From NCBI RefSeq assembly GCF_028368995.1, contig NZ_JAQNDL010000001.1, forward strand, positions 1,760,001-1,824,000: 64,000 bases of DNA. Reading direction: 5' to 3'. This DNA is from Nannocystis bainbridge. Its GTDB lineage: Bacteria > Myxococcota_A > Polyangia > Nannocystales > Nannocystaceae. Shown here one piece after another: positions 13,961 through 30,646 of this stretch (within the stretch, counting starts at the first letter, position 1; every line of letters begins with the position of its first letter). Below the pieces are notes generated by a model. The model had not been told where the DNA came from. It saw only the letters and a list, made by a program, of their open reading frames with translations, and ran no database searches. A program made the position numbers and the translations under genes.

Positions 13961-15702
13961 GGGATCCCGTGATGATGCCCGAAGTGGCACAGGCCGATGA
14001 TGCGAAACAGGGCCGCCCGCTCCCACTCGATCAGCCGCCGCTGCGGCGCCAGCAGCGGCGCCAGTGCGGCCACATCGACCCGCGCTCGCACCAGCTCCGG
14101 CGGGTCCGCCAGCAGCCGCGACGCTTCGCTCTGAAGCACCCCCGCGGCCCCCTGATCCTTCGGCAGCGCCGACTTGCGGCGTGCGCGGATCTCCTCCGGC
14201 ACCACCCCGCGGAGCGCCGCGCGCAGCACCGCCTTCTCGACCCCGCCCGCGAGCCCCGACGCTGGCGGCACCGCGGCCGCCAGCGCCAGCAGCTCGCGAT
14301 CGGCGAACGGCACCCGCGCCTCGAGCCCCGCGCGCATCGTGTGCACGTCGCCGTTGTGCAGCAGCCGCGGCAACCACCGCTCGACGATCAGCGCCGTCGT
14401 GCCCGCGATGCGCTGCGCCGGCGAATCACTCGGTCGCATCCACGCCCGGTAGCGCTCCGTGAACGTCGCCAGCGGATCTGCCAGCACCTCGCGGCGCACC
14501 GGCACCTGGCCGAAGCGGCGCAAGATCGCCGCCGGGCTGGCCGTCGCCGCCGCGTCGAGCAGGAAGTGATAGCCGAAGTGCGTCTCGTCGGCCGCGTCGC
14601 CGACCAGCACCGCCTTGACCGTCCCGGCCGCCGCGCGCGCGAGCCGGTCCTGCGCGACCTCCTGCTCCCACGCCGGCAGCGCGTCGTTGTGCCGGGCGAT
14701 GCGCTCGAGGTCCGCGGCCAGCTCGCTGCGCGGCGCCTGCACCCGCATCAGCGACAGCCCGCTGGCCGCCGCCGCCCGGGTCGCGAACGGAGAATCATCG
14801 GACACGACGATGGTCGAATGATCATAGTCGAACCCGGCCATGCCCTCGAACGCGATCGTATAGGCCGGCGGCGGCTCCGGCAGCGCCGCGGCGGCGAACG
14901 CCGCGATCGCGCTCGAGTCGAGCCCGCCGCTGAGGAACACCCCGATCGGCGCCTCGGCCACGCAGGCCCGCTCGACCGCGCGCTGCAGCGCCGATCGAAG
15001 TGCCTCCGGCGCCGGCGCCTCGCCGTCCGCCGCGACCTCGAAGCGAAAGTAGCGCCGCGCCGTCGCGCCCTCGCGCGAGACCTCGAGCGTGTGGCCCGGC
15101 TGCAGGTATTCGACGCCTTCGAACATCGAAGTCGCCACCCCGCTGAAGCACGGAGCGATCAGGTACTCGAGCACCGCGTCATCGTCCGCGCGCACCGGCG
15201 AATCACGGCAGTGCGCCACCGCGTGCGCCTCCGAGGCGAACACCAGCTCGACCCCGTCCCACGCGTAGGCCAGCGGCTTGACCCCGAGTGGGTCGCGGGC
15301 CAAAAACCCGCAGCGGCGCGCGTGGTCCCACACGAAGAACGCGAACATCCCGTTGAACCGGCGCACGCACGCCGGGCCCCACGCGGCGAAGGCCGCCAGC
15401 ACCGTCTCGGCGTCGCAGCGGGTGCGGAACGGGTACGAGAGCTCCGCGCGCAGCGCGGTATGATCATAGACCTCGCCGTTGAACACGATCGAGAACCGAC
15501 CGTCGGGCGTGGTCATCGGCTGGGCGCCGCCCTCGCGATCGAGCAGCGCCAGCCGGGTGTGCTGAAGCACGCAATACGGGTCGACGAGCTCGCCCTCACC
15601 GTCGGGGCCGCGGTGGCGCAGCCGCTCGCGCATGACCCGGGCGCGAGCCAGCTGCGCCGCCGCCCCGCCGTCGAAGCGCACGATCCCCGCTATGCCGCAC
15701 AC
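13957..15702 (-). CDS. asnB: Asparagine synthase-like glutamine-dependent amidotransferase
   Basis: Start (M)CGIAG with Ntn Cys; HRGPD, FNGEVY, RDPLGVKPL, LSGGLDSS, GDAADE and RVPF motifs. The context suggests a tailoring amidotransferase rather than housekeeping AsnB. Confidence 0.9.
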   Translation of the reverse strand: MCGIAGIVRFDGGAAAQLARARVMRERLRHRGPDGEGELVDPYCVLQHTRLALLDREGGAQPMTTPDGRFSIVFNGEVYDHTALRAELSYPFRTRCDAETVLAAFAAWGPACVRRFNGMFAFFVWDHARRCGFLARDPLGVKPLAYAWDGVELVFASEAHAVAHCRDSPVRADDDAVLEYLIAPCFSGVATSMFEGVEYLQPGHTLEVSREGATARRYFRFEVAADGEAPAPEALRSALQRAVERACVAEAPIGVFLSGGLDSSAIAAFAAAALPEPPPAYTIAFEGMAGFDYDHSTIVVSDDSPFATRAAAASGLSLMRVQAPRSELAADLERIARHNDALPAWEQEVAQDRLARAAAGTVKAVLVGDAADETHFGYHFLLDAAATASPAAILRRFGQVPVRREVLADPLATFTERYRAWMRPSDSPAQRIAGTTALIVERWLPRLLHNGDVHTMRAGLEARVPFADRELLALAAAVPPASGLAGGVEKAVLRAALRGVVPEEIRARRKSALPKDQGAAGVLQSEASRLLADPPELVRARVDVAALAPLLAPQRRLIEWERAALFRIIGLCHFGHHHGIP

Positions 15703-16639
15703 GACACGATCAACCCGGGAAAGCGCCGCGACAGCAGCGCGAGCGTGGTCCAGCCGACGCGCCCGCGATCGCTCGAGAGGTCGGGCTCGCGGCCGAGCGC
15801 CTGCGCCAGGGCGGCGACCCGCGGGCCGTCCCACAGCGGCGACAGATCGATCGGCGGGGCGAAGCGCGGCTGCTTGGGCCGGCGCGCGATCGCCTCGGGG
15901 ACCCCGAGTTCGACCGCCAGGCGCCGCAGCGCGTGCTTGTGCGGATCCTCGGCGACGTGGCGCGCGACCGCCTCGGCGAGGAACGGCGCGCCCGGCTCGA
16001 GCCCGGCCGCGCGAGCCAGGGCGCCGACGATCGGCAGGTAATCGGCGCCCGAGGTGCCGCGGAACACCTCGTCGGCGCCGTCGCCGGTGACGAGCACGTC
16101 GTGGCCGTCGGCGCGCACGGCCCGCGCCAGCAGCCACCGACTGACCGGGTGCAGGTTGTAGAGCGGAGCCTCGCAGGCCGCGATCACCTGCGGCAGCGCC
16201 TCCACGTAATCCGCCGCGGTCACACGAATCACCCGCAAGGGCAGCCCCAGGGCCCCGGCGACCGCGCGCGCCTCGGCCTCCTCGCTGTATCCGGGCAGCT
16301 CGGGCGCCAATGTGTAGACCGTCGCACGCGCCCCGAGCAGGCCCGCGAGCGCGGCCGAGTCGACGCCGCCGCTCAGCGCCAGCGCGACCCGCCCCGCCGG
16401 CAACGCATCGAGGGCGCCAGCGAGCAGCGAATGCAGCGATCCGGGCGGGCCGCGGTGATGCACCCCGCGCAGCCACGGCGGCAGCACCAGGCGCGCGCCG
16501 GCGATGCAGGTCGAGCCGTCGGCCGTGACCTCGCCGAACGCCGCTCGCACGCCGTGCGCATCGAGGCTCACCGCGGCGCCGCCGACCAGGCCGACCAGCG
16601 ACGCTCCCCGCCGGCCCCGCCATTCATAGCAGTGCGCCG

Positions 16640-16643
<4 letters not shown>
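15690..16643 (-). CDS. AsnB synthetase-domain-only protein (ATP-dependent amide ligase-like)
   Basis: LSGGVDS, TGDGADEVF, PFL, K..LR and RRPK motifs; no N-terminal Cys-Gly-Ile glutaminase domain. Start overlaps the radical SAM stop (ATGA). Confidence 0.85.
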
Positions 16644-17860
<1,217 letters not shown>

Positions 17861-17996
17861 CCCGGGCAGGGTAGCCGGCCGGCCCGCCCCCGCTCAAGGC
17901 CAGCCGCGCCGCGCGGTTCCGCCGCCCGCGACTTCGACGCGCGAGCGTCGCCCGCACGACCTCCCCATTCGTGCGACCCGGGCCAATGACGGGACT

Positions 17997-20666
17997 TCAG
18001 CGCCTTCGCCCCGCGACCTCGGCGACCAGCTCCATCAGCGCCTGGGCGTCGATCGGCTTGCCGATGTGGGCCTGGAACCCGGCCTGCAGCGCCGAGACCC
18101 GGTCCAGCTCGCGCGTGTAGGCCGTGAGCGCGATCGCAGGCAGCGCCCCGCCCTGCTCGCGGGGCCGCGCTCGCAGCGTGCGCATCAGCTGCAGCCCGTC
18201 CTGCTCCGGCATGCCGATGTCCGAGATCATCACCGCGAACCCGCCCGCGGCGGCCGCGGCCAGCGCAGCGGAGGCGGAGGCCACCGCCGTCACCGTCGCG
18301 CCGCCGAGCTCGAGCACCCGCTGCAGCAGCTCGCGCGAGTCGGCCTCGTCCTCGACCAGCAGGCAGCGCAGGCCGGCCAGCGGGCGCGGCGGAGCGGTCT
18401 TCTCGACCTGCGGCAGCGCCTCGCGCGAGCCGGCCGTGGCCAGCGGGAGCTGGACCGTGAACGTCGCCCCGCGCCCCTCGCCCTCGCTCTGGCCGTGGAC
18501 CTGGCCGCCGTGCAGCTCGACCAGCTTGCGCACGATCGCCAGCCCGAGCCCGAGGCCTTGCGAGCGCCGGTTCATGCCCGCGTCGGCCTGGCGGAACGCG
18601 TCGAACAGGAACGGCACGAACGCCGGCGCGAGGCCCTGGCCGGTGTCGCGGACCGTGACCACCGCGTCGTCGCCGACGCGTCGCAGGTCGACGTGGATCG
18701 TCCCGCCCTTGGGCGTGAACTTCACGGCGTTGGTGACCAGGTTGCCGGCGATCTGGCGCAGCCGCGTCTCGTCGCCGAGCACCGGCAGCGGCGCGTCGGC
18801 GAACGTGCGCACGAGCTGCAGCTCCTTGGCGCGGATCGCCAGCGCGGCGGTCTCCAGCGCCGCCCCCACCGCGGCCCGCAGGTCGAGCTCGGCGACCTCG
18901 AGCGTCAGCTTGCCGCTGGCCATGCGCGACACGTCGAGCAGGTCGTCGACGATCTGGGTCTGCAGCTGGGCGTTGCGGGCGATGACCTCGATCACGTGCG
19001 GCACCTGCACCGCCGGCACGAACCCCTCCTGCATCATCTGCGCCCAGCCCGAGATCACGTTGAGCGGCGCCCGCAGCTCGTGGCTGACCGTGGCGATGAA
19101 GTTGTCCTTGGCGCGGTCGGTGTCGAGCAGCCGTTGATTGAGGGTCCGCAGCTCCGAGGCCCGCTGGCGCACCCCACCGAGCAGCACCCGGCGCAGGCTC
19201 GACGCGGCCTCGATGTGCGCCGCCTGCCACGGCAAGCTGCGCCCGCGGACCGTCTCGCGCCACAGCGCGAACGAGCCGCGCGGGCTCAGCCGCGGCGGCC
19301 CGTCGCCGCTCGCCCCGACCGCGGTCTTCGCCGGGCCGCCGGCCCAATCGATGGTCTGCTCGGTCGAGGGGCGGAACCACAGGATGTACTCGCCCAGCGC
19401 CCGCGACACGGCGACTGCCAACAACCCCGCCGGCTGGCCGGCGAATCCGACCGAGCCCGGGAACCGCACCGCCAGCCGATCGGTGACGACCACGTCGTCG
19501 CTCGCCGTGCGCAGCCACGCCACCAGCGCCGCGACCTCGTCCGCGCCCGGGCACTCGCCGACGCAGCGGAAGCCCTCCTCGAGCACCACCGCCGCCCCGG
19601 TCGCCCCGACCAGCTCGAGCAGCGCCGGCGTGCCCAGCCCGTCGAGCATCTCCGCGTGCGTCACCACCGACTGCACGATCGCCGCCTCCTGGACCTGGGC
19701 GCGCCGCGCCTGCTCGGCCTCGTCGGCGCGCTCCAGCACGCTCAATTGCCACGACAGCGCCTGGGCCAGGAATTCGGCGGTCTCGCGGATCTGGAATGGC
19801 ACCACCCGCGGCCCGCTGTAATGATGGCAGGCGATCAGCCCCGCCAGCGCGCCGTCGACCAGCAGCGAGATCGACATCGACGCCGTCACGCCCATGTTGC
19901 GCAGGTACTCGATGTGGATCGGCGACACGCTGCGCAGCACGCCGTGGCTGAGGTCGAGCGGCGCCCCGCTCGCCGGGTCGAGCGGCGGCAGCAGCGGCAC
20001 CGGTCGGTAGTCGACGTCGCCGATCAGCCGCAGCCAGTTGATGGTGTAGAGCCGGCGCGCCTGCGCGGGGATGTCGGAGGCCGGATAGTGCTGCCCGAGG
20101 AACGGCTCGAGGTCGGCGCGCCGGTCCTCGGCCACGACCTCGCCGTTCCACTCGGGGTCGAAGCGATAGACCATCACGCGGTCGAAGCCGGTGATCGCCC
20201 GGACCTCGGCGGCGGCGATCGAAGTCAGCGCGGCGACATCGCGCGCCGCCTGCAGGCGCAGCACGCTGGCGCGCAGCCGCGGATCGAAGGCCGGGGCCGG
20301 GGCGGCGGCCCCAGGGGCGCTCGCGCGCGGCTCGAGCTCGACGACGAGGACGTCGCCCACGCGGTGGAGCACGGCCTCGAAGCTGCGACCGGAGCGCGCC
20401 GTCAGCGGCAGCGGGTTGTGCTCGCGCAGCGCCTCCGAGGCGGCCGCGGCCCGCAGACGGTCCGCGCTGCCCGGCTCGAACAGCGCCAGCGCCGAGGCCC
20501 CGCGCGCCGCCTGGGCCGTCACCGCGAGGTGCTCGCCGACGTTGGCGCTGACCTGCTGGACCACCAGCTCCGCGCCGCGGCAGGCCAGCAGCACGCCGTG
20601 CGGCTGAATCGCCCCCGGGATGTGGATCGGCTCGCTAGCGCAGGTGTCGAGGGTGACCGGCTCCAT
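17997..20666 (-). CDS. bphP: Bacteriophytochrome, PAS-GAF-PHY-HisKA-HATPase-REC hybrid
   Basis: N-terminal bilin Cys in TCASEPIHIPGAIQPHG; GFDRVMVY, HYPASDIP, SPIH, ACHH, WAG, PRGSF; H-box SHELRAPL; C-terminal REC. Confidence 0.96.
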   Translation of the reverse strand: MEPVTLDTCASEPIHIPGAIQPHGVLLACRGAELVVQQVSANVGEHLAVTAQAARGASALALFEPGSADRLRAAAASEALREHNPLPLTARSGRSFEAVLHRVGDVLVVELEPRASAPGAAAPAPAFDPRLRASVLRLQAARDVAALTSIAAAEVRAITGFDRVMVYRFDPEWNGEVVAEDRRADLEPFLGQHYPASDIPAQARRLYTINWLRLIGDVDYRPVPLLPPLDPASGAPLDLSHGVLRSVSPIHIEYLRNMGVTASMSISLLVDGALAGLIACHHYSGPRVVPFQIRETAEFLAQALSWQLSVLERADEAEQARRAQVQEAAIVQSVVTHAEMLDGLGTPALLELVGATGAAVVLEEGFRCVGECPGADEVAALVAWLRTASDDVVVTDRLAVRFPGSVGFAGQPAGLLAVAVSRALGEYILWFRPSTEQTIDWAGGPAKTAVGASGDGPPRLSPRGSFALWRETVRGRSLPWQAAHIEAASSLRRVLLGGVRQRASELRTLNQRLLDTDRAKDNFIATVSHELRAPLNVISGWAQMMQEGFVPAVQVPHVIEVIARNAQLQTQIVDDLLDVSRMASGKLTLEVAELDLRAAVGAALETAALAIRAKELQLVRTFADAPLPVLGDETRLRQIAGNLVTNAVKFTPKGGTIHVDLRRVGDDAVVTVRDTGQGLAPAFVPFLFDAFRQADAGMNRRSQGLGLGLAIVRKLVELHGGQVHGQSEGEGRGATFTVQLPLATAGSREALPQVEKTAPPRPLAGLRCLLVEDEADSRELLQRVLELGGATVTAVASASAALAAAAAGGFAVMISDIGMPEQDGLQLMRTLRARPREQGGALPAIALTAYTRELDRVSALQAGFQAHIGKPIDAQALMELVAEVAGRRR

Positions 20667-20673
20667 GCGCGCG

Positions 20674-21234
20674 CTAGCGTATCGCTCCCGCTGCCGTGAA
20701 TGCAGCGGTAAAGCGCGCGAACGCGGCGGCGGCAGCGCGGCACACGGCCACGACTTGCGCTTCGCTCAGCGCCTCGTCGTGCTCCGCGAGCCCGACGAGG
20801 AAGGCCTTCCAGGCCGCCGCGGTGCCCTCGCCGCGCAACCGCAAGTATCGCGTGGGCGCCGCCGGCCCGAGCGCGGCCTCCACCTCGCGCGCCAGCACCA
20901 TCCCGCCGAGCGTCGAGCCGGCGAGCACGTAGCTCCAACCGAGAGCCTGCTCGCGGGTGGCGTCGATCGGCGCCGCGTCGTCTTCGGCCCCCGCGACAGC
21001 ACCGAGCGCGGCGAGGTCGGCGAGCAGGCACTCGCGCCGCGTCGGCTCGCCCGGCGCCGGGAACCACGCCAGCATCGCCGCCTCGAGCGGCGCCACCGCG
21101 GCCAGGCTGCCGCGCAGGAACGCGACGTAGCGATCGCGGGTGATCGCGCTGGCCGACATGGCCAGGGCAGCGTCGAGCTGCCGGTGATGTTCGTGCGTCT
21201 CGCTGCGCAGCGCGGTCAGGAGTCGTCCGGGCAA
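20674..21234 (-). CDS. bphO: Biliverdin-producing heme oxygenase
   Basis: LRSETHEHHRQLD and GWSYVLAGSTLGG motifs; lies 7 bp upstream of bphP. TTG start uncertain. Confidence 0.88.
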   Translation of the reverse strand: MPGRLLTALRSETHEHHRQLDAALAMSASAITRDRYVAFLRGSLAAVAPLEAAMLAWFPAPGEPTRRECLLADLAALGAVAGAEDDAAPIDATREQALGWSYVLAGSTLGGMVLAREVEAALGPAAPTRYLRLRGEGTAAAWKAFLVGLAEHDEALSEAQVVAVCRAAAAAFARFTAAFTAAGAIR

Positions 21235-21440
21235 GCGCTATCACCCTACCACGACCGATCCGTCGGCCATCGATCGCCGATCGCCGACCTCGCGCGGTTT
21301 CACACGCCTCCACCACGCAGCAGCGACGTCGCCCTTTCACGCGCGCCGCCTCGTGACCCGCGCGCCGCGAAGCCGCCGACCGTCTCTGATAGAGTGGCTC
21401 TCTGCGCCCGCGTGAGCGCGCCGCCGAGGACCGCCGCAGC

Positions 21441-22463
21441 ATGCCCGACGCCGCACGAATTGGTGATATGCACGCCTGCCCCAAGGTCGAGCCCGGGCCC
21501 GTCCCGCACGTCGGCGGACCGATCCTCAGCGGCAGCGCCAACGTCATCATCGGCTACTCGCCGGCCGCCCGGGTCGGCGACAGCATCGTCTGCTTCCCCG
21601 TCGGTCCGGCCGACAGCGTCCAGGACGGCTCGCCGACGGTGCTCATCAATTTCCGCGACGCCGCGCGCAAGACCGACCCCTCGTCCCACGGCGGCCAGGT
21701 CACCGCCGGCTGTCCCACGGTCATCATCGGTGGTTCACCGCAGAGCATGGCCATGTTCACCGCGGCTCGCCGCGCCACCCCGTTCTGTGAGGAGTGCGAG
21801 CGGCGGCGGCGCGAGATGGACGACCGCGACGACTCGGCCGAGATCGAGACCGACACCGTCACCCTCGTCGACGACGAGCCCCCGGTCGGCGCGCTCCTCG
21901 GCGCTGCCCTGTCCGCCGCCGACGGCTTCACCCCGCAGGAGCTCGCCGTTCAGCCCGATCAGGCCGACGGCCTCGACGACCTGCGCCGGTCCGCCCGCTA
22001 CGCCGTCGCCTATCAGTTCTACGCCGCGCACGGCGGCGACAAGCTCAAGCCGAGCCGGATCTGGTCGCACATCGGCGGCATCGACATCTCGCAGCCCGTC
22101 GAGGTCGTCGACATCGCCGGTCGCACCCTCTACCAGCGCGGGGTCCCCGGCGCCGGCACCGGCCAGTACTTCGCGCTCGACCCCGCCGTCGCGCCCGAGC
22201 AGCTCGGCGTCTCGGAGCAGGTCTACCCGCTCGTCGACGGTGAGCCCACCCCGCCACCTGTCCCACGGGACAGGCGCGTGATCGCCTTCGACGACGAGGT
22301 CCCCGCGCTCGGCCTCAAGAGCACCGCCGCCGCGATCACCGACACCTGGTCGATGCCGCCGACGATCGACGACCCCGGCCAGATCGTCCCCTGCGACGGG
22401 GGCGGCACCCAGCTCATGGTCCCCAAGGTCTTCCACGCCGGCGCCAGCCTGGTGCTCCCGTAG
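21441..22463 (+). CDS. PAAR protein with a C-terminal Tse6/Tne1 (Ntox46)-like NAD(P)+ glycohydrolase toxin
   Basis: PAAR repeats DAARIGD, PAARVGD, DAARKTD; linker PFCEEC; toxin motifs SHIGGIDISQPVEVV, KSTAAAITDTWS and GGGTQ. Confidence 0.85.
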   Translation: MPDAARIGDMHACPKVEPGPVPHVGGPILSGSANVIIGYSPAARVGDSIVCFPVGPADSVQDGSPTVLINFRDAARKTDPSSHGGQVTAGCPTVIIGGSPQSMAMFTAARRATPFCEECERRRREMDDRDDSAEIETDTVTLVDDEPPVGALLGAALSAADGFTPQELAVQPDQADGLDDLRRSARYAVAYQFYAAHGGDKLKPSRIWSHIGGIDISQPVEVVDIAGRTLYQRGVPGAGTGQYFALDPAVAPEQLGVSEQVYPLVDGEPTPPPVPRDRRVIAFDDEVPALGLKSTAAAITDTWSMPPTIDDPGQIVPCDGGGTQLMVPKVFHAGASLVLP

Positions 22464-22473
22464 GATCCTCGCC

Positions 22474-23589
22474 ATGGCCGACACGATGCGGATCCTGTCG
22501 CGCGACGCCTTCGCCGAGGTATTGCGCGAGGCCCAGCAGCGCGCCCGCGAGCTCGACCCCTCGCGCTGGCCGCTGCTGCGCCAGGTCGACGCGCAGCTCG
22601 AGTTCATGGCCCGCACCACCGCCGACGGCCGCGTGCCGTACCCCGAGGAGCGCGCGCGCACGACCGTCGGCCCGCTCGCCGCGCGGGAGCTCGAGTCGAT
22701 CGACCCCGAGTTCGCCGACCAGCTCGAGGAGCTCGACTACACCTTCCACCGCTACCCGCTGCTGCCGAAGGGCCCGCCGCTGCGGCGCCGCGGCATCTTG
22801 CAGGTGTGGACCGGCCGCGACGCGTTCCGCAAGTTGATCCTCGAGCACGGCGAGCCGCGCACCGTCGGCACCGCGCGCGCCGATTTCGTGGTCCACGCCG
22901 ACGCCGCCGGCTCGCCGCAATTCCAGATCGTGTGGGACGGCGTCTGCGCCCACGTGCGGGCCCACGACCCGCACCAGCTCACGATCGACGGCGCGCCCGG
23001 GTGGTACGGCGAGCTGGCCAACCGCGGGTGGGTCAAGGCCGGCGCCACCACCTTCCGCTTCCTCGTCGAGGACCGCACCCCGCCGCGCTCGCCCGCCGCG
23101 CCCACGCCCGCCAGCGCCGCCGCGCTCGAACAGCTGCGCCGCCGTCGCGACGCCGGCGACCTCTACGCCGTCATCGACGCCGCTCGCTCCGACCGCGCCC
23201 TCGTGCTGCTCGACGAGAGCGTCGACCCCCACGCCTCGCTCTACGACGGCGAACCGGGCCGCGCCCTCGACGACGTCGCCCCCTACCTCGTCCAGTTCCG
23301 CCGCGACTCCGGCCTGCTCGATCGCCTCGTCACCGAGGGCTGGGGCGACGCCTGGGGCATCTTCCTCGAGAGCAGCGCCGAGTTCGAGGCCGTGCGCCGC
23401 CACCTGCGCCAGTTCCTGGTCGTCAAGGGCGAGGGTCAGTCACGCCGCTTGTTCTTCCGCTTCTACGACCCGAGAGTCATGCGCACCACCGCCGAGGTCC
23501 TCACCGCCGAGCAGCGCGCCGAGCTGCTGCAGGACCTCGGCTGCATCCTCTACGAGGACGAAGACGGCGGCCTCCGCGAGCTGCGCTGA
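22474..23589 (+). CDS. Tsi6-like immunity domain - degenerate FHA - DUF4123 (T6SS effector chaperone) fusion
   Basis: N-terminal LLRQVDAQLEFM...TVGPLAARELESIDPEFADQL (Tsi6-like); central beta-rich FHA-like segment ending VKAGATTFRF; C-terminal LYAVIDAAR...SLYDG...APYLV...WGIF...FFRFYDPRV (DUF4123). Confidence 0.85.
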   Translation: MADTMRILSRDAFAEVLREAQQRARELDPSRWPLLRQVDAQLEFMARTTADGRVPYPEERARTTVGPLAARELESIDPEFADQLEELDYTFHRYPLLPKGPPLRRRGILQVWTGRDAFRKLILEHGEPRTVGTARADFVVHADAAGSPQFQIVWDGVCAHVRAHDPHQLTIDGAPGWYGELANRGWVKAGATTFRFLVEDRTPPRSPAAPTPASAAALEQLRRRRDAGDLYAVIDAARSDRALVLLDESVDPHASLYDGEPGRALDDVAPYLVQFRRDSGLLDRLVTEGWGDAWGIFLESSAEFEAVRRHLRQFLVVKGEGQSRRLFFRFYDPRVMRTTAEVLTAEQRAELLQDLGCILYEDEDGGLRELR

Positions 23590-23598
23590 CCGCCGCGC

Positions 23599-24399
23599 TC
23601 ACTTCGGGCGGTTGGTGCACTCGGCCACCTTGAACACGACCTTGGTCGTGTTGAAGTGCGTCTTCCGGCTCTCTCTCGAATCGGTGTAGTAGTTGACGAC
23701 GTCGGTGATAGCGTCGACGTGCGCGCCGGTGTCGCCGAGGTCGGACTTCTCGTTGAGCTTCTTCCAGCGCCAGTACGCCATCGCCGACAGCATCCCGCCC
23801 TTTGGCTCGAGCGTCTGCTCGACGTTCGCCACGATGTCGAGCCCGTTGCCGGGGTAGCGGGCGTTCATCTGGTTCTGCACGTTCTGATAGATCTCCTTGC
23901 CCGTGATCTGGATGTACCCGCGCCCGCGGTACAGCCAGCCCTCCCCGCTCTCGATGCTGCCGTTGCCGTTGCGCTTGCCGTAGGCCCGGTTGGCGATCGC
24001 CTCCTGGTCGGCGGGGTGATCGTCGTTCCTGCCGTACAGCGCCGCCTCCGCCGGGTTGTCGCGGAAGTAATTGAACTTCTCCTTCAGCACCGACTCCTTG
24101 TAGTTCAGGTTCTCCGTCAGCGCGTTGATCGACGCCCCGACCTCTTGCCGGATCTGGGCGAAGAAGTGGGCCTTGCGCAGGCAGCGGTTGAGCTCGAACT
24201 TCTCGAACGCGCTGTTGAAGGCGTCCATCACCGCGGTGATCTTGGCCGACGAGGCGCTGGGGAAGATCGCCGTCATCTGCTCCTGCGTCACCTTCGCGCA
24301 GCAGCGCGGGCAATCGCCCACGCACGCGCCGACCGGCGAGTTGACCGGGCTCGCGCCGGACCCCGTGTTGAGATCGCTAAGTCCCTGCCGGTGCGCCAT
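23599..24399 (-). CDS. GH19 (lysozyme/chitinase-like) hydrolase, probable T6SS cargo effector
   Basis: AHFFAQIRQE, ENLNY, GNG...GWLYRGRGYIQITGK and ITDVVN motifs; last gene of the vgrG operon; no signal peptide. Confidence 0.88.
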   Translation of the reverse strand: MAHRQGLSDLNTGSGASPVNSPVGACVGDCPRCCAKVTQEQMTAIFPSASSAKITAVMDAFNSAFEKFELNRCLRKAHFFAQIRQEVGASINALTENLNYKESVLKEKFNYFRDNPAEAALYGRNDDHPADQEAIANRAYGKRNGNGSIESGEGWLYRGRGYIQITGKEIYQNVQNQMNARYPGNGLDIVANVEQTLEPKGGMLSAMAYWRWKKLNEKSDLGDTGAHVDAITDVVNYYTDSRESRKTHFNTTKVVFKVAECTNRPK

Positions 24400-24401
24400 G
24401 C

Positions 24402-25172
24402 TCAGCTCCTCCTCGGCAGGTCACCCAGCACGTGCTTCAGCCAGGTGACCGCCTTCTTCTCGAGCCGGACCGGCCACCTCGCCGGCTCTGGCGCCAGGCC
24501 GTCGCGGATGGTGTTGGCGATCCACGGATACAGCGGATCGTCGGCGCAGCCGTGGCCGAACGCGAACATCAGCACGCTCATCAGCGCCTCGCCGCGGGCG
24601 CTCGGCGACTTGAGGCCACGCGCCGCCTCGACCCCTTCGGCGATCAGGCTCGTCAGCGCCTGCTCCCCGATGTAAGCCGCCTTCTCCGGGTACACCGCCG
24701 CAAACTGGCGCGCCAGCTCGCCGACGATCTGCGCCGGCGGGTACTCGAGCGGCTGCTCCGCAAATTGCAGGATCCGCCGCAGCGCCGCGAACGTGAAGTC
24801 GTCGTCCGGCCCGGCCACCTGCCGCCGGTACTCCGTCACCCGGTCATGGATGCGCCCGGCTCGCTGCATCTGCGGATCGTCGGTCGCCGTCGTCAGCAGC
24901 TCGTGAAACCACGGGTACTGCGGATCGGTGTCGAAGCGGCTGCCGAACAGCAGCATCAATTCGAGGTACATGCGCACCGGCCCGCGCAGGTCGAAGCCGT
25001 GGCGCTCGGCCGCCTGCATGCCCTGCTGCACGACCACCAGCATCTGCGCCTCGCCCAGCGTCTTGAACAGCGGCGGCGAGAAGGCGGCCAGGTGGGCCAC
25101 CATCTCGATCTCGAAGGCGCGCCGCGGCGGCTCGCGGAAGCGCGCCAGTTGGTCCTTGCCGATCGTCAGCAT
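24402..25172 (-). CDS. Helical hypothetical protein, probable T6SS adaptor/co-chaperone
   Basis: Starts MLTIGKDQLARF; internal duplication (LMLLFGSRFDTDPQYPW / LMFAFGHGCADDPLYPW); lies between vgrG and the effector. Confidence 0.75.
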   Translation of the reverse strand: MLTIGKDQLARFREPPRRAFEIEMVAHLAAFSPPLFKTLGEAQMLVVVQQGMQAAERHGFDLRGPVRMYLELMLLFGSRFDTDPQYPWFHELLTTATDDPQMQRAGRIHDRVTEYRRQVAGPDDDFTFAALRRILQFAEQPLEYPPAQIVGELARQFAAVYPEKAAYIGEQALTSLIAEGVEAARGLKSPSARGEALMSVLMFAFGHGCADDPLYPWIANTIRDGLAPEPARWPVRLEKKAVTWLKHVLGDLPRRS

Positions 25173-25194
25173 CGTGTCCGTCCCTGACGCTGGC

Positions 25195-27342
25195 TCACTT
25201 CGACCCGCGCTCCGACTCGATCGCGCTGAGCGGCAGGGCGTCCTTCGCGTCGGCCGCCGTCCGCGGATCGGCCGCGGCCCCGCGCACCGGTGAGCCCGCG
25301 CTGTTGATATAGACCATGCTGCCCTTGATGTAGATCCCGCCGGCGTCGATGGTGATGAACCCGCCCGGGCCCTGGATCGTCAGCGCCTCGCCGGCGTCGA
25401 GCACGATCCTGCTGGCCTTGAAGTGGACCTCGTCGCCGGCCTCGACCGCCAGACGACCGGCGATGCGGGCCTGCTCGTTGCCGCCGACGATGCGCGACAC
25501 CGAGTCGTCGACCTTCTCGAGCAGGCTCTTGCGCACGTGCGCGTGGCTGTCGCCGTCGACCAGCTCGAGCTTGTCGCTGCGCACGTGCAGGTCGACGCGC
25601 CCCGGGGCATCGATGCCGCCGACCAGCAGCTGCACGTCGCCGCCGAGGTGCGCCGTGGTGTGGCGGTGCACCTTGAGGTGATGGTCGTGATAGAGCTGGA
25701 CCAGGCTGTCGCCGGCCTTGCCCTGCTCGTCGCTGCCGACCGTCACGTGCGAGTGGCGGAACACCGTCGAGAACGCGTCGTTGTTGACGCGCACGTCGAT
25801 GTTGCGCTCCGCGTGCAGGAAGATCTGCTCGTCGTTCTTCTTGTCCTCGAAGCGCAGCTCGTTGTAGCCGCCGCCGCCGATCGAGCTGTCCGACTTGATC
25901 GTGCTGCGCGTCTTGTGCTCCGGCAGCGTGTACGGCGTCTCGTTCATGCCGTGGTAGATGCGCCCGGTGATGATCGGCCGGTCCGGGTCGCCCTCGATGA
26001 AGTCGACCAGCACCTCGTGACCGATGCGCGGCAGGAACATCGTGCCCCAGCCGTGCCCCGCCCACGCCTGGCTGACGCGGACCCAGCAGGTGCTGCGCTC
26101 GTCGTGCTCGCCCTCGCGGTCCCAGTGGAATTGCACGCGCACCCGGCCGTGCTCGTCGGTGTGGATCTCCTCGCCGTCGGGCCCGACGACGGTCGCCGTC
26201 TGCACCCCGCGCACCGCCGGCCGCGGCGTGACCCGGGCCGGCCGGAACGGCACCTTCAGCTCGGTCGCCGTGAAGCTGTTATGATAGGACATCTCGCCGC
26301 TGGCGTCGTGCAGCAGCGCCTGCGGCTGCTCGCCCTTGTGCTCGACGCGGAGCAGGCGATATTCGCCGTTGAGCTCCTCGTGCGGGTGCCCGACCAGGGT
26401 CATCACCGCCCCCGCGACCAGCCGCGGGCAGTCGCTGGCGCCGACGGCCTGCCGGCGGGTGGCCTGGTGCGCCTCGAGGCGGATCCGCGCCATCGCCTGG
26501 CCCTGGTGCGGCCCGCCCCGCCCCGGGTACTGATATTCGCCGGGGTAGTCGTATTGCTCGAGCTCGGGGTTCTGCTTGGCCGCCTCCTTGACCTCCATCG
26601 ATTGGTCGGGCCGGTGGAGGTTCAGGTCGCGCAGGGTGACCTTGCCGGTCCGCACGCGGCTGCCGATCTGCAGCTCCTTCACGTGCTCGCGGTCCTGGAT
26701 CAGGTTGTTGGGCCGGTTGAACCACACCGTCGCGGTCCCGGGGATCGGGCCGTGGGCCCCGACGTGGTCGGCCATCACCCACACGTGCCGATTCGCCTCG
26801 TGCTCGAAGAAATAGAAGATGCCGTCCTCTTCGAGCAGCCGGCTGACGAACGCCAGGTCGCTCTCGCGGTACTGCACGCAGTAGTTGCGCGGCGCGTACG
26901 TCCCGGTCAACGAGAAGCGGAACCAATCGCGCGGCAGGCCGGCCTTCGTCAGCACCTCGCCGACGATCTGCTCCGTGGTCTTGTCCTGGAAGATCCGGCA
27001 GTCGTGGCGGTGCTGCAGCCGGTGCGCCCACGGCTCGACGATCAGCGCGTATCGCTGGAGATAGCGGGTCTCGCCGATGTACTCCGCCTCGCACACCACC
27101 CCGTGGATCACCCGCTCGACGTCGAGGCCCTGGATCGTCAGCAGCGCCGGCTGACCGACGAACGTCTCGGGGTCGATGTGCGAGGCGCTGGCGACCTCGA
27201 CCGAGAAGCGGAACAGCTCGGAGATGGACTCCTGCCCGGTGAATCGCACCACCTGCAGCGGCAGGTCCGCCACGTCCAGGGTGAACACGGAAAGGTCTCC
27301 GAGCGACCCGGAGCCGGACGACACGAGATCGGGCTGGTTCAT
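25195..27342 (-). CDS. vgrG: Type VI secretion spike protein VgrG
   Basis: RIFQDK, YCVQYRESDLAFVSRLLEEDGIFYFF, QTATVVG, TDEHGRVRVQFHWDR, PRIGHEVLVDFIEGDPDRP, NELRFED; DUF2345-like C-terminus. Likely start MNQPDL at 27342. Confidence 0.96.
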   Translation of the reverse strand: MNQPDLVSSGSGSLGDLSVFTLDVADLPLQVVRFTGQESISELFRFSVEVASASHIDPETFVGQPALLTIQGLDVERVIHGVVCEAEYIGETRYLQRYALIVEPWAHRLQHRHDCRIFQDKTTEQIVGEVLTKAGLPRDWFRFSLTGTYAPRNYCVQYRESDLAFVSRLLEEDGIFYFFEHEANRHVWVMADHVGAHGPIPGTATVWFNRPNNLIQDREHVKELQIGSRVRTGKVTLRDLNLHRPDQSMEVKEAAKQNPELEQYDYPGEYQYPGRGGPHQGQAMARIRLEAHQATRRQAVGASDCPRLVAGAVMTLVGHPHEELNGEYRLLRVEHKGEQPQALLHDASGEMSYHNSFTATELKVPFRPARVTPRPAVRGVQTATVVGPDGEEIHTDEHGRVRVQFHWDREGEHDERSTCWVRVSQAWAGHGWGTMFLPRIGHEVLVDFIEGDPDRPIITGRIYHGMNETPYTLPEHKTRSTIKSDSSIGGGGYNELRFEDKKNDEQIFLHAERNIDVRVNNDAFSTVFRHSHVTVGSDEQGKAGDSLVQLYHDHHLKVHRHTTAHLGGDVQLLVGGIDAPGRVDLHVRSDKLELVDGDSHAHVRKSLLEKVDDSVSRIVGGNEQARIAGRLAVEAGDEVHFKASRIVLDAGEALTIQGPGGFITIDAGGIYIKGSMVYINSAGSPVRGAAADPRTAADAKDALPLSAIESERGSK

Positions 27343-27993
27343 GAGATGGAGGCCGTTTGACCGCTTCTGGGCATGATTTGCACGCAGGGGGTGCTGCGTC
27401 AACGCGTCTTTGCGCGCGCCCGCGGCCGCGATGCCCGCGAGCTCGCGGAGGTCAGCGCCGACGCCACGCGGCCACGCACGGGCGCGACGGGCACGGGTGG
27501 GCAATCATGGGTGCTCGCGGGGCCCGCTGCGAAGCTCGCTGCGCGACGACGCCGCGGCAATGTGCGAACCACGGGTCGGCCATGACGACCCCGCGGGCAG
27601 CCTCGCCCCGTCGCGATCGCAGAGGTCCGTGCGCGGCGCAGCGGCCGCGACGCAGCCCGAACCGCCTGGAAGCCGTCCTGGGGCCGCCCCGGGGCCCCCT
27701 GGTGGCGCCACCCAGGAGCGAATCCACAGGGCCCTCGATCTCGGCGTGCCCATGGCTCGCGGCAGTCATGCCACGCCGCGTCACCCGGCAGCGGCGCCCT
27801 CGTGGTGCTCACAATCCCGCTGCAGGCATTGCCCGCTGTGGTCATGCCATTGCCGCGTGCGAGCGACCCCTCGTACCTCGACTGTCCGAGCACGCATTGC
27901 AGTGCGGGAATCATCCCCCCTCTGCTTGCGCAGAGCGGCGAAACTCGCACGATCGGGCTAGGCGCGCGCCTGCGCCGATCGTAAGATTCGCGG

Positions 27994-29535
27994 ATGCGCG
28001 CATCGAGCCCCGCCTCCTGGATCGCCGTCCTCTCGCTCGTGGCCGCCTGCACCGACGACGCCACTACCACCACCGCCACCCCGACGACCACCGGCGGCGC
28101 GATCGGCAGCAGCACTACCACCACCGGCACCAGCGAGGGCCAGGACACGACCACGGGGACCACCGCGGCCACCACCGCCACCAGCGGCGGCGAAGACCCG
28201 ACCACCTCCGGCACCACCGTCGCTGGCACCACCAGCGGCGGCGTCGATGACAGCACCACCGGCTTCGACGACAGCACCAGCACTGGCGAGCCCGAGGAGC
28301 CGCTGCTGCCCGGCTGCGGCGACACCCCGCCCGCCGACTTCGACGCCGTGCCGAGCGCCCCTGCCGACGGTGCCACGATCGCCGGCGCGACCACCGAGCT
28401 CGCCGTCACCCTCAGCGGCCAGATCCTCGCCGACGCCACCGCCAAGTTTCACCTCCGCGAGGTCCACGAGCTCAGCGACGACGACGACTTCACGATCGTC
28501 ATCATGCCGGACACGCAGAACTACACCCAGTTCCCCGGCAACTTCCCTCAGTACCAGGACCAGACCAAATGGGTGTGGGAGCACCGCAACACCGACCGCA
28601 TCGTCGCCGTGCTGCACAACGGCGACGTCGTCCAGCACGGCAACCAGATCGAGCTCGAGTGGCAGCGCGCCCAGACCGCGATGACGACCCTCGAGACCGA
28701 GAAGCCCAACTTCCCCGACGGCATCCCCTACGGCATCGCCGTCGGCAACCATGACAACGGCGCCCACGCCCACGACAACAAGCCCTTCGGCACGGGCCTC
28801 TTCAACAAGTATTTCGGCGTCAAGCGGTTCGAGAAGCGCGGCTACTACGGCGGCCACTACGGCAGCAAGAACGACAACAACTGGATCGTCGTCCAGGCCG
28901 GCAACCTCGAGGTCGTGATGGTCAGCCTCGAATACCGCGGCGACCTCGGCCAGGACCCCGATGTCCTCCAGTGGGCCCGCGGCGTCTTCAAGGACCACCC
29001 GCACGCGCTCGGCATCGTCAACTCCCACCATATCGTCCGCGCCGACGGCGGCTTCTCCGGCGAGGGCAAGCAGATCTACGAGGCGATGAAGACCGTCGAC
29101 AACGTCCAGTTGATGACGAGCGGCCACATCAAGGAGTTCCGCAACCGCCGCACCGACAATCACAAGGGCCACGTCATCCACTCGATGCTGGCCGACTACC
29201 AGGACCTCATCATCGGCGCCGAGGACTGCGCCGGCGGCTGCGGCTACATGCGCCTGTGGCGGTTCTCGCCGAAGAAGAACCAGCTCAAGGTCGAGACCTT
29301 CTCGCCGACGCTCAACAAGTCGATGACCGGACCGAAGGAGCAGTTCACCCTCACGGTCGACCTCTCCGCGGCCACCGGCGTGTTCGAGCTGAAGGGCTCG
29401 ATCAGCGGCCCCGGCCCCGCCCTCGCCTTCGCGGCCGAGGGCCTCAAGCCCGGCACCAGCTACGAGTGGTACGCCGTCGTCAACGAGTGCGGCGCGAAGG
29501 TCAAGACGCCGGTCCAGACCTTCAAGGTGCAGTGA
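27994..29535 (+). CDS. Lipoprotein with a Thr-rich stalk and a calcineurin-like metallophosphoesterase domain
   Basis: Lipobox LVAAC; Thr-rich linker; MPDTQ, HNGDVV, GNHD, NSHH and SGH metal motifs. Confidence 0.9.
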   Translation: MRASSPASWIAVLSLVAACTDDATTTTATPTTTGGAIGSSTTTTGTSEGQDTTTGTTAATTATSGGEDPTTSGTTVAGTTSGGVDDSTTGFDDSTSTGEPEEPLLPGCGDTPPADFDAVPSAPADGATIAGATTELAVTLSGQILADATAKFHLREVHELSDDDDFTIVIMPDTQNYTQFPGNFPQYQDQTKWVWEHRNTDRIVAVLHNGDVVQHGNQIELEWQRAQTAMTTLETEKPNFPDGIPYGIAVGNHDNGAHAHDNKPFGTGLFNKYFGVKRFEKRGYYGGHYGSKNDNNWIVVQAGNLEVVMVSLEYRGDLGQDPDVLQWARGVFKDHPHALGIVNSHHIVRADGGFSGEGKQIYEAMKTVDNVQLMTSGHIKEFRNRRTDNHKGHVIHSMLADYQDLIIGAEDCAGGCGYMRLWRFSPKKNQLKVETFSPTLNKSMTGPKEQFTLTVDLSAATGVFELKGSISGPGPALAFAAEGLKPGTSYEWYAVVNECGAKVKTPVQTFKVQ

Positions 29536-29623
29536 CGCATGGCGCGCGCGCGCTGAGCCTGGTCACGCCCCGCCGACCCTCCGCGGGCCCGGCCGGGGCC
29601 ACGGGGCTGCTACCGTGCCGCCC

Positions 29624-30598
29624 ATGCCCATGCAAGCGAAGCTGGTCCGAACGGTGCCGGAGCTCGAAGGCACGTTGCCCCTGAGCAGGACCGCGCGAGG
29701 ACCCCACCTCTCGCTCAAGGACGGCACGCTCACGGCGTGGGACCAGGACCTGCAGCCCCTCCGCCGCTCGCCCACCGGCTTGCCCCCCGAAGCGAAGCTG
29801 CTCGACGCGCGGCCCGATCTGAGCGCGCTCGCGGCCGCGATCGACGGTGGTTTATGCATCGTCGCGGACACCCTGCGCCCGGACCCCGCCGTCATCGCGG
29901 TGGCCGCGGACTCCGCCACATTCATCACACCGAATCGCCTCATTGTCACCGCGCCCGGCGCCCCCGCCGGGGGCCGCTCCTTCTCGGAGTTCCACCGCGT
30001 GCTGCTGATGGACCTGGAGGGGCTCGTGCTCGACGAACGACGCGTCGAGGCCGACGCCGCGTGGGCGCACGCCCTCGTGCACCCGACCGAGCCAGCGGTC
30101 CTCTGCGACTTCATCATGGGCCAGGACGGCAACGTGCTCACGGTGATCCGCGCCGAGGGTGACGCGCTGACGGTCCGTGAGGTGTTCCCCGCCGAGGCGT
30201 TCGTGAACCGGGGATTCAGCCCCGACGGCACCCGGGTGCTGCTGCCGCCTTATCCCAGCGATCCGGGGCGCGCGGTGGTCGCGACGTGGCCGCAGCTCGA
30301 CATCGCCGCGCGCCTCGAGGTGGCAGACGACCTGCCGGAGGTGCAGATGGGCATCGACGTGTGGGGCGGCTTCCTCGACGACCACCACGTGCTGCTCCTG
30401 GCGACCGAGCAGGGCCCCATCGTCGCCGCCTCCGACCTCCGCGAAGCTGCGCTGGTCCCCCTGGTGGGCTTCGACGCGGTGAGCGACAGCGAGGGATTCA
30501 TCGAGCTCGCCGCCCCGCTGGCCCCCGACCGCTTCGCGGCCGTCGTGTGGCACCACGGGACCCGGCAGACGACCGTCTGGCGCCTGGAGCGGGTCTAA
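29624..30598 (+). CDS. Hypothetical protein (beta-rich, possibly propeller)
   Basis: GC3-biased ORF with FSPDG and TTVWRL beta-propeller-like elements; exact start (29615/29624/29630) uncertain. Confidence 0.65.
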   Translation: MPMQAKLVRTVPELEGTLPLSRTARGPHLSLKDGTLTAWDQDLQPLRRSPTGLPPEAKLLDARPDLSALAAAIDGGLCIVADTLRPDPAVIAVAADSATFITPNRLIVTAPGAPAGGRSFSEFHRVLLMDLEGLVLDERRVEADAAWAHALVHPTEPAVLCDFIMGQDGNVLTVIRAEGDALTVREVFPAEAFVNRGFSPDGTRVLLPPYPSDPGRAVVATWPQLDIAARLEVADDLPEVQMGIDVWGGFLDDHHVLLLATEQGPIVAASDLREAALVPLVGFDAVSDSEGFIELAAPLAPDRFAAVVWHHGTRQTTVWRLERV

Positions 30599-30646
30599 AA
30601 AAGCAGCGCACCGCGGCTCGATCCGCGAAGCGCCGATTGAGGCCGT

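Follow-up and report, generated by a model that had tools for sequence, protein, structure and literature searches.

Tse6, an NAD(P)+ glycohydrolase of Pseudomonas aeruginosa, has transmembrane segments and needs the EagT6 chaperone. Its Ntox46 toxin domain is borne by a PAAR protein and is followed by Tsi6, a stand-alone protein of about 95 amino acids (aa) (PDB 4zv0, 4zv4 and 4zuy). In the window analysed here, a stretch of 64,000 nucleotides of Nannocystis bainbridge (contig NZ_JAQNDL010000001.1, forward-strand positions 1,760,001 to 1,824,000), a PAAR-borne Ntox46 toxin is likewise followed by a Tsi6-family sequence, but this sequence is the first third of a 371-aa protein. A single open reading frame (ORF; 22474 to 23589, + strand; gene positions are compared in window coordinates) encodes this fusion protein, in which the Tsi6-like part is joined to an FHA-fold domain and to a DUF4123 domain.

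The passages of PMC11582642 on which we rely describe DUF4123 proteins as adaptors in which a conserved N-lobe recognises, at the C-terminus of VgrG, a helix-turn-helix that carries a Cys pair, and in which a variable C-lobe binds the effector. They further describe TecT and co-TecT of P. aeruginosa as the two lobes on separate proteins, TecT binding the C-terminal extension of its PAAR and co-TecT the effector. In the part of PMC7714669 considered here, FHA is the commonest extra domain of DUF4123 proteins, and the FHA-DUF4123 proteins, which represent 1.1% of them, are left with an undetermined role.

Judged against the same passages of PMC11582642, the system of the window resembles the TecT/co-TecT/PAAR4/TseT system by a DUF4123 domain limited to the N-lobe, a separate putative effector-binding lobe, an extended PAAR and a separate candidate effector, and the order PAAR, adaptor, C-lobe, effector and immunity recurs in its unfused relatives. 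It differs from that system in that its N-lobe carries an FHA domain and, in the fused clade, an N-terminal immunity domain, that its PAAR is itself toxin-bearing and that its C-lobe protein is a tandem duplicate; the likeness of this 256-aa protein to co-TecT is one of gene context and of predicted role. The fold of both lobes is shared with the two-lobed Taps (Tap6 and Tap14 in those passages; Tap3 with Tke5, PDB 9r8g). The Taps are described there as single proteins that bind the VgrG C-terminus, whereas the lobes of the window are found on two proteins, its VgrG C-terminus is devoid of a Cys pair and its PAAR possesses one. Finally, the FHA-DUF4123 proteins have the same FHA and N-lobe core, with 40-52% identity, but they keep the GR, SxxH and GT residues and have no Tsi6 domain. 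We consider it somewhat probable that the fusion protein acts both as the immunity protein of the toxin encoded upstream and as a hub which, placed on the PAAR tip, recruits a second effector.

One frame encodes three domains

The fusion ORF extends from the ATG at 22474 to the stop codon at 23589 without any internal stop, and a gap of 10 bp separates it from the toxin gene. A preliminary description of this DNA had presented it as a single ORF downstream of a PAAR-toxin gene, combining a Tsi6-like helical N-terminus, a degenerate FHA-like domain and a complete DUF4123 domain. All three domains are real, because Pfam, the structural model and the fold search give matches to three separate parts of the protein.

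The Tsi6 family PF18660 matches aa 15-90 (22516 to 22743, +) of the whole protein with 35.1 bits, the Pfam cut-off being 26.9, and the N-terminal 101 aa alone reach 38.8 bits; the family scan of the genome agrees on the position of this helical domain. The AlphaFold2 model of the fusion protein, built with 73 relatives, has a predicted local distance difference test (pLDDT) of 93.6 and a predicted template-modelling score of 0.89. When the model is compared with 48,161 PDB representatives, aa 11-108 superpose on Tsi6 (4zuy_A) with a Z of 11.7 and a root-mean-square deviation (rmsd) of 4.3 over 93 of 96 residues, at 19% identity. This Z lies within the range that helical bundles reach by chance, so that it adds to the Pfam match and does not replace it.

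For the middle part (aa 96-230), no Pfam family is matched even at E<=10. It aligns as a homologue of the FHA domains of FHA-DUF4123 proteins, relatives with 40-48% identity do match the Pfam FHA models PF00498 or PF16697, and the family profile, which includes canonical FHA members, matches the solved FHA domain 3po8_A with an E of 1.9e-9. In the fold search, aa 103-200 (22780 to 23073, +) are matched to FHA domains with Z of 12-14 and rmsd of 2.0-2.5 over about 93 residues, and Foldseek ranks FHA domains first (template-modelling score 0.74-0.80 by target). These fold matches place the eleven-stranded beta-sandwich of the FHA fold in the middle domain, where an FHA-like beta domain had been proposed.

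The DUF4123 family PF13503 matches aa 230-349 with 112.8 bits over profile positions 1-118 of 119, and aa 219-371 (23128 to 23589, +) align with residues 13-182 of the 290 residues of Tap3 (9r8g_B) with a Z of 14.8 over 146 residues. The NCBIfam model Tla1 gives 58.5 bits on the fusion protein, under its cut-off of 200, and a phmmer search with P0001 against the PDB sequences yields no match at E<=1. The domain is complete with respect to Pfam, as announced, but it corresponds to only the N-lobe of a two-lobed adaptor.

The fusion is conserved and under purifying selection

Tsi6 and DUF4123 are found in one protein in 76 of 118 database relatives, and 31 others (about 300 aa, 34-52% identical) combine FHA or Yop-YscD_cpl with DUF4123 and have no Tsi6. 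The genome (11.05 Mb, 5 contigs) contains four full-length fusion copies with 65-66% identity, each of the four directly after a PAAR-Ntox46 gene. The fusion protein is present in 7 of the 11 genomes of the genus, and in all five of those that are at least 90% complete. At each of 17 fused loci (4 of this genome and 13 others, from 7 Nannocystis-type genomes), the frame is open and a toxin homologue is located directly upstream on the same strand.

The preliminary description had raised the possibility of a stop or a frameshift between the domains; none occurs in the ORF, in the 17 loci or in the overlapping soil-metagenome contigs, which are short and of which none spans the ORF. One paired -1/+1 change, 4 nt apart, is found in these contigs and leaves the frame intact. 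Among DNA sequencing runs, those that best cover the region come from soil metagenomes and contain no more than 0.48 of the sampled words; no RNA sequencing run is listed for it. In one related genome (G303; L032:7001-7561), several fusion copies are either truncated (186-aa ORF) or broken into two frames, which may reflect pseudogenes or erroneous indels in a long-read assembly.

Purifying selection acts on each of the three domains: the ratio of non-synonymous to synonymous substitution rates (dN/dS) among three orthologues is 0.14-0.52 per domain and always less than 1, which argues against a dead passenger domain. Moreover, 79 fused proteins retain a full-length DUF4123 in which D235, R238, F328, R329, Y331, D332 and P333 are invariant.

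The Tsi6-like domain and the upstream toxin

The gene that precedes the fusion (21441 to 22463, +) encodes a 340-aa protein made of a PAAR domain, a conserved extension, a linker and a Tse6-like domain of the NADase family. Pfam assigns PAAR_motif to aa 19-85 with 71.5 bits and Ntox46 to aa 191-326 (22011 to 22418, +) with 45.4 bits. The protein matches the Tse6 structure 4zv0_A with an E of 7.5e-8 as a whole and of 2.2e-8 for the toxin part alone, the latter also matching 4zv4_C (E about 8e-8), and it shares conserved blocks with Tse6; the PAAR-toxin neighbour of the preliminary description is what it was said to be. The solved structure that best matches the PAAR domain by itself (21441 to 21737, +) is SalCis10 (9rce_c, E 1.5e-23), which ranks ahead of 8gra_J (2.8e-9), a type VI secretion PAAR by name.

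A family scan of the whole genome reveals exactly four Ntox46 and four Tsi6 matches, all paired. The four Tsi6 matches are all situated in fusion ORFs and no stand-alone Tsi6 is found in the 11.05 Mb, so that the fused Tsi6 is the only candidate immunity for four toxins of the NADase family. The paralogues score 35.2, 27.2 and 21.1 bits for Tsi6. Two matches to the Eag/DcrB family are present in the genome, both far from the toxin-fusion loci. Homology, synteny and gene counts provide strong circumstantial evidence that the Tsi6 domain would be the immunity for the toxin encoded upstream, a role which is well supported, though indirectly.

The fusion as a merger of two neighbouring genes

The comparison of related loci shows that the fusion ORF results from the merger of two neighbouring genes of an ancestral operon ordered VgrG, PAAR-toxin, immunity and FHA-DUF4123 adaptor. 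In Minicystis rosea (L040), the PAAR-toxin (5693-6694), a 94-aa Tsi6 (6699-6983) and an FHA-DUF4123 protein (from 6992) are all separate. The stand-alone Tsi6 reaches 34.7 bits in Pfam and is 34% identical to the Tsi6 domain of the fusion ORF, and its boundary with the FHA-DUF4123 gene consists of TGA, 8 nt and ATG. In a Polyangiaceae metagenome-assembled genome (MAG; L044), PAAR-Ntox46 is followed by a 111-aa relative (37% identical) and then by the adaptor. Both in Minicystis and in genome G100, stand-alone Tsi6 relatives are placed where the immunity gene is expected.

The same order is encountered with other toxins. In the N. bainbridge genome, two shorter adaptors are each the last gene of an operon that runs VgrG, PAAR-toxin, immunity-like gene, adaptor, and one of these immunity-like genes scores for Imm71/Imm72. 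Among 80 related loci of named genomes, the orders PAAR-Zeta_toxin, 279-aa gene, adaptor and PAAR-(unknown toxin), gene of 142-169 aa, adaptor both recur.

In a quick tree computed by maximum likelihood from the FHA-DUF4123 core (128 rows, rooted at the midpoint; P0114, P0120 and cores shorter than 230 aa left out), all 78 fused rows are grouped on one side of a branch whose Shimodaira-Hasegawa-like approximate likelihood-ratio test value is 98, L044 and L040 being outside. A single fusion event is consistent with this tree, although it is not proven by it. In Polyangium MAGs (L043:3041-3931 and L045), a 296-aa ORF without Pfam match follows immediately, and in frame, on the stop codon of a 123-aa PAAR and ends in a Tsi6-like stretch; it could be a broken PAAR-toxin with its immunity, or another fusion.

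The FHA pocket is decayed in the fused clade

The residues that bind phosphothreonine in canonical FHA domains were counted in an alignment of the fusion protein and 118 database relatives. The Arg of GR is kept in 2 of 79 proteins with the N-terminal domain and in 35 of 37 without it. The corresponding numbers are 1/79 and 27/37 for the Ser of SxxH, 51/79 and 33/37 for its His, 0/79 and 32/37 for the Gly of the (N)GT loop, and 1/79 and 25/37 for the Thr of that loop. P0080 and P0082, the two proteins without the Arg among those counted as unfused, are in fact fragments of fused-family proteins that have lost their N-terminus. P0085 and P0086, the two fused proteins that keep it, are the most divergent of the fused set, and P0086 continues to score for Pfam FHA. 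As read from this alignment, the FHA domain is degenerate in the fused clade only, and the pocket is intact in the free adaptors.

In the fusion protein of the window, Thr, Gly, Gln and Gln-Leu are found at the positions of the Arg of GR, the Ser and the His of SxxH and the Asn/Gly-Thr loop, respectively. The claim of a degenerate FHA domain is confirmed and extends to the family, since the Arg, the Ser and the Gly and Thr of the loop are nearly all lost across the 79 fused proteins. The canonical residues are gone as had been stated, but in one detail the motif must be read otherwise: according to the alignment, the His of SxxH is replaced by Gln149 and not by a Phe.

A split adaptor and its candidate C-lobe

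The fusion protein ends at aa 371, just past the N-lobe, and its match to Tap3 stops at residue 182 of 290. By its length and by this fold match, it contains no effector-binding C-lobe; in the model, the DUF4123 part is an N-lobe only, as in TecT. Since the Tap3 match is confined to the N-lobe and the protein ends there, the other lobe was sought elsewhere.

The best candidate is the 256-aa helical protein encoded on the opposite strand (24402 to 25172, -), which is composed of two copies of a unit of about 100 aa. It belongs to no family in Pfam or NCBIfam, and only to unnamed clusters in the ESM Atlas. In its AlphaFold2 model (pLDDT 87.6), residues 5-115 superpose on residues 199-302 of Tap3 (9r8g_B), that is on the C-lobe, with a Z of 12.8 and an rmsd of 2.9 over 104 residues. 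This value is in the chance range of helical bundles, and the match is retained only because of the gap that separates it from the next one and because of the gene context: Tap3 is the sole chain of the 48,161 with a Z of at least 8, the next match being at 5.9. The 24402-25172 protein is therefore presented as a candidate for a detached effector-binding C-lobe, by analogy of its modelled fold.

Myxococcota, Acidobacteriota and Planctomycetota, as well as a Rhodanobacter MAG, encode relatives of the 256-aa protein directly after an adaptor gene (relatives include L063:7997-8761, L074:7097-7891, L095:1635-2429, L094:7549-8313 and L070:8738-9499), and in a Polyangium MAG the N-lobe and the C-lobe unit are found in one ORF (L043:3850-5139). 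The unit is often duplicated in tandem, exhibits a GSxFDTDPQxPW motif and has the predicted fold of a DUF4123 C-lobe. With a profile of the unit, a copy is detected on the strand of the adaptor, starting no more than 450 bp downstream of it, at 4 of 7 fused loci, 20 of 47 FHA-type loci and 7 of 25 DUF4123-only loci; anywhere in the locus, the numbers are 7/7, 30/47 and 10/25, respectively. The 11 Mb genome contains six loci with the unit, and one lies within about 6 kb of each of the four fusion loci. Elsewhere in this genome, about 11 kb from the unfused adaptor F, an orphan module (C1:2049516-2052276, -) opens with a C-lobe unit and continues with homologues of the proteins of about 600 aa and of 286 aa that are found after Polyangiaceae adaptors.

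The PAAR extension as a putative docking site

All 7 fused loci and 41 of 47 FHA-type loci have a PAAR gene upstream of the adaptor and on its strand. Directly after their PAAR domain, the adaptor-linked PAAR proteins have in common the motif Q..L..AA..G.PFCEEC (in short, AAxxGxPFCEEC), which the toxin of the window also carries, within an extension that covers toxin aa 99-125 (21735 to 21815, +; ...SPQSMAMFTAARRATPFCEECERRRREM). In the alignment of 33 PAAR proteins (toxin numbering), C116 is invariant, and Q101, A108, P114, F115 and C119 are conserved in at least 90%. The motif ends the small PAARs, and in the PAAR-toxins the linker and the toxin come after it.

In the N. bainbridge genome, PFCE(E/K)C is present in 6/6 adaptor-linked PAARs and in 0/3 other PAARs. 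The strict form P[FLY]CxxC is found at all 7 fused loci, at 23 of 42 FHA-type loci and at 3 of 10 DUF4123-only loci; where it is absent, AAxxGxPF is mostly retained. The C-terminus of the VgrG (25195 to 27504) shows no Cys-pair motif. By analogy with TecT and PAAR4, and given this co-occurrence, the DUF4123 N-lobe probably docks on the PAAR extension.

A lytic enzyme as the likely cargo

Between the fusion ORF and the C-lobe candidate, a 266-aa protein related to GH19 enzymes and endolysins is encoded on the - strand (23599 to 24399). It matches 9eoi_A, a 'putative lytic enzyme', with an E of 4.8e-18, as well as several endolysins, and has no Pfam or NCBIfam match. By its position after the VgrG and C-lobe genes, this lytic enzyme is likely to be the cargo effector. 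The first codon positions of its gene are less rich in G+C (0.56) than those of its neighbours.

In the relatives, the gene that comes after the C-lobe unit encodes proteins of about 600 aa followed by partners of about 280 aa, a DUF4329 protein or a GH18 protein. Nannocystis sp. RBIL2 (L031:8248-11001) has a protein-arginine deiminase (PAD; PAD_M + PAD, 917 aa) that bears the C-lobe unit as an N-terminal fusion. Such varied partners, placed after the unit or fused to it, form the pattern expected of an effector-recognition module. The fusion of the C-lobe unit with PAD constitutes an unusual candidate type VI effector. In the N. bainbridge genome, the PAD and C-lobe parts occur as overlapping ORFs in different frames (L007:4731-7109, -, and L007:6590-7369, -), an overlap which may be due to a frameshift or an assembly error.

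Genomic context

The VgrG spike gene (25195 to 27504, -; Phage_GPD 302.7 bits, TIGR03361 629 bits) is convergent with the toxin-fusion pair. It is situated 1.6 kb from the fusion ORF on the other strand, the PAAR gene being directly upstream of the fusion, and its true start is perhaps later, the relatives aligning from aa 51-54. The genome has three TssC genes, and type VI secretion is therefore present. The G+C content of the window is about 74%, for which reason most of its listed ORFs are shadows; at this composition, a scan of 20600-27900 for promoters and terminators is little informative: it gave a single promoter-like site, located within the VgrG frame, and nothing that resembles a terminator.

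The flanks (13957-20666 and 27994-33121) seem unrelated to secretion and encode an asparagine synthase-like protein, a radical SAM protein, a bacteriophytochrome histidine kinase (17997 to 20666, -), a metallophosphoesterase and a WGR-domain protein. Large ORFs (L008:9267-11414, +; L009:9479-12319, +) with weak protein-kinase matches, mostly below the Pfam cut-offs, precede two of the genome's four toxin-fusion pairs in divergent orientation; they may be there by chance in a kinase-rich genome, but the FHA domain makes them of interest.

Discussion

The model that we lean towards combines an immunity and an adaptor function in one polypeptide. The Tsi6-like domain would bind and block the Ntox46 domain of the toxin encoded upstream and would represent the only immunity of the producer, and the DUF4123 N-lobe would dock on the AAxxGxPFCEEC extension of the same toxin. 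The effector-binding lobe would be supplied by the 256-aa protein, which would probably hold the GH19-like lytic enzyme. The FHA domain, deprived of its pocket, would probably serve now as a rigid spacer or as a protein-protein surface. Mounted on the VgrG spike at its PAAR tip, the fusion protein would have the NADase at one end and the second effector at the other. A loading role of the fusion protein is plausible, and the cargo is more likely to be a second effector on the PAAR tip because the PAAR-borne NADase attaches itself via its PAAR.

Several observations weigh against this model. On the immunity side, the profile match of the Tsi6 domain to 4zuy_A is weak (E 0.015), one of the four paralogues is under the Pfam Tsi6 cut-off (21.1 bits against 26.9), and the domain-wise identities over 17 toxin-fusion pairs show no co-variation specific to Tsi6 and Ntox46, every domain correlating with every other (rho 0.33-0.80). 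The Z values of the two helical parts, 11.7 and 12.8, both fall where helical bundles can match by chance. On the adaptor side, the C-lobe gene is directly downstream in just 4/7 fused and 20/47 FHA-type loci, it is on the strand opposite to the fusion in the window, no immunity gene adjoins the lytic enzyme, and the dN/dS of DUF4123 reaches 0.52. Finally, the locus counts are not independent, because they include close relatives and several loci per genome.

The fusion protein might instead serve only the PAAR-NADase encoded upstream, which comes closest to the main idea of the preliminary description, that a single polypeptide may neutralise the NADase and also load this toxin or other cargo. 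The Tsi6 domain would then replace the missing effector-binding lobe and the DUF4123 lobe would hold the spike, through the PAAR extension or VgrG, the toxin being pinned inactive until firing without any second cargo. The toxin-fusion pair is indeed the sole invariant unit (17/17), what comes next is not constant (either a Peptidase_M15_3 protein or a PAD protein, or else no gene on that strand), the fusion protein has no C-lobe of its own, and in the same genome loci E and F end a VgrG, PAAR-toxin and immunity operon with an unfused adaptor and no effector after it. We nevertheless hold this explanation to be unlikely: a PAAR-fused toxin is already attached to VgrG through its PAAR, a C-lobe gene is within about 6 kb of every fusion locus although there are just six such loci in 11 Mb, and related adaptors placed beside small PAARs precede a C-lobe gene and a separate effector. 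That the protein is an immunity protein only, whose FHA-DUF4123 tail is the passenger of an accidental read-through and no longer an adaptor, appears very improbable. The fusion required the loss of just one stop codon, the ligand-binding residues of the FHA domain are lost, and in two comparisons out of three DUF4123 has a higher dN/dS (0.27-0.52) than either of the other domains; however, this ratio is below 1 throughout, the full-length DUF4123 keeps its invariant residues in 79 fused proteins, several paralogues per genome keep the tail, and the model is confident over the whole protein.

The converse possibility, of an adaptor whose Tsi6-like domain would grip the toxin for loading while another gene provides the protection, finds an argument in the distance of the Tsi6 match (19% identity in the fold alignment, one paralogue below the Pfam cut-off). 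It is confronted with a genome where there is no other Tsi6 match, with a 10-bp toxin-fusion gap that contains no small gene and with the stand-alone relatives in the immunity position of Minicystis and G100, and we give it hardly any credit. An assembly or sequencing artefact joining two genes, to which the seemingly split copies of G303 could point, has a negligible probability: 17 loci from 7 genomes share the open frame, as do 76 database proteins of many different origins, and the overlapping soil-metagenome contigs show no frame-breaking change. The 76 database fusions and the 17 conserved loci refute it for practical purposes.

Our proposal of an immunity protein and PAAR-tip hub may be extended to a more detailed and more doubtful scenario, which we regard, taken as a whole, as possible but not probable. 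The fusion protein would form a two-point clamp, with the DUF4123 lobe on the PFCEEC extension and the Tsi6 domain on the NADase; it would ride the loaded spike, be stripped off at firing and also recruit the second effector. In the unfused relatives, the intact FHA pocket would make loading dependent on a phosphorylated partner, and in the fused clade this phospho-switch would have given way to the covalent attachment of the immunity domain, which would be why the pocket decayed only after the fusion.

Part of this architecture was known already: the FHA-DUF4123 proteins, the split DUF4123 adaptors and the automatic annotation, NCBI naming the fused proteins 'immunity protein Tsi6 family protein'. 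The preliminary description knew of no earlier account of the triple fusion. We found no published account of an immunity-adaptor triple fusion in a literature that was judged mostly by titles and abstracts, with subscription journals outside its scope and excluding Supplementary Figure S2 and Table S2 of PMC7714669, which concern extra DUF4123 domains and may mention Tsi6; as an entry of the databases, under its automatic name, the architecture is not new. What is new is the restriction of DUF4123 to its N-lobe in the fusion, the separate C-lobe candidate at 24402-25172 and the motif of the PAAR extension.

In summary, the fusion of an immunity domain with an adaptor offers a 'Rosetta stone' link, which argues that the immunities of PAAR-toxins physically belong to the spike complex before firing, and it gives a handle on the release of immunity at firing. 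The AAxxGxPFCEEC sequence represents a testable docking motif on PAAR proteins, and an unannotated family widespread in Myxococcota, Acidobacteriota and Planctomycetota, and present in a Rhodanobacter MAG, is tentatively assigned as the detached C-lobe of DUF4123 adaptors. The adaptor FHA domain, whose pocket is intact in free adaptors and decayed in fused ones, offers a natural experiment on this domain. All these observations have as their context the competition between bacteria in which the soil myxobacteria are engaged.

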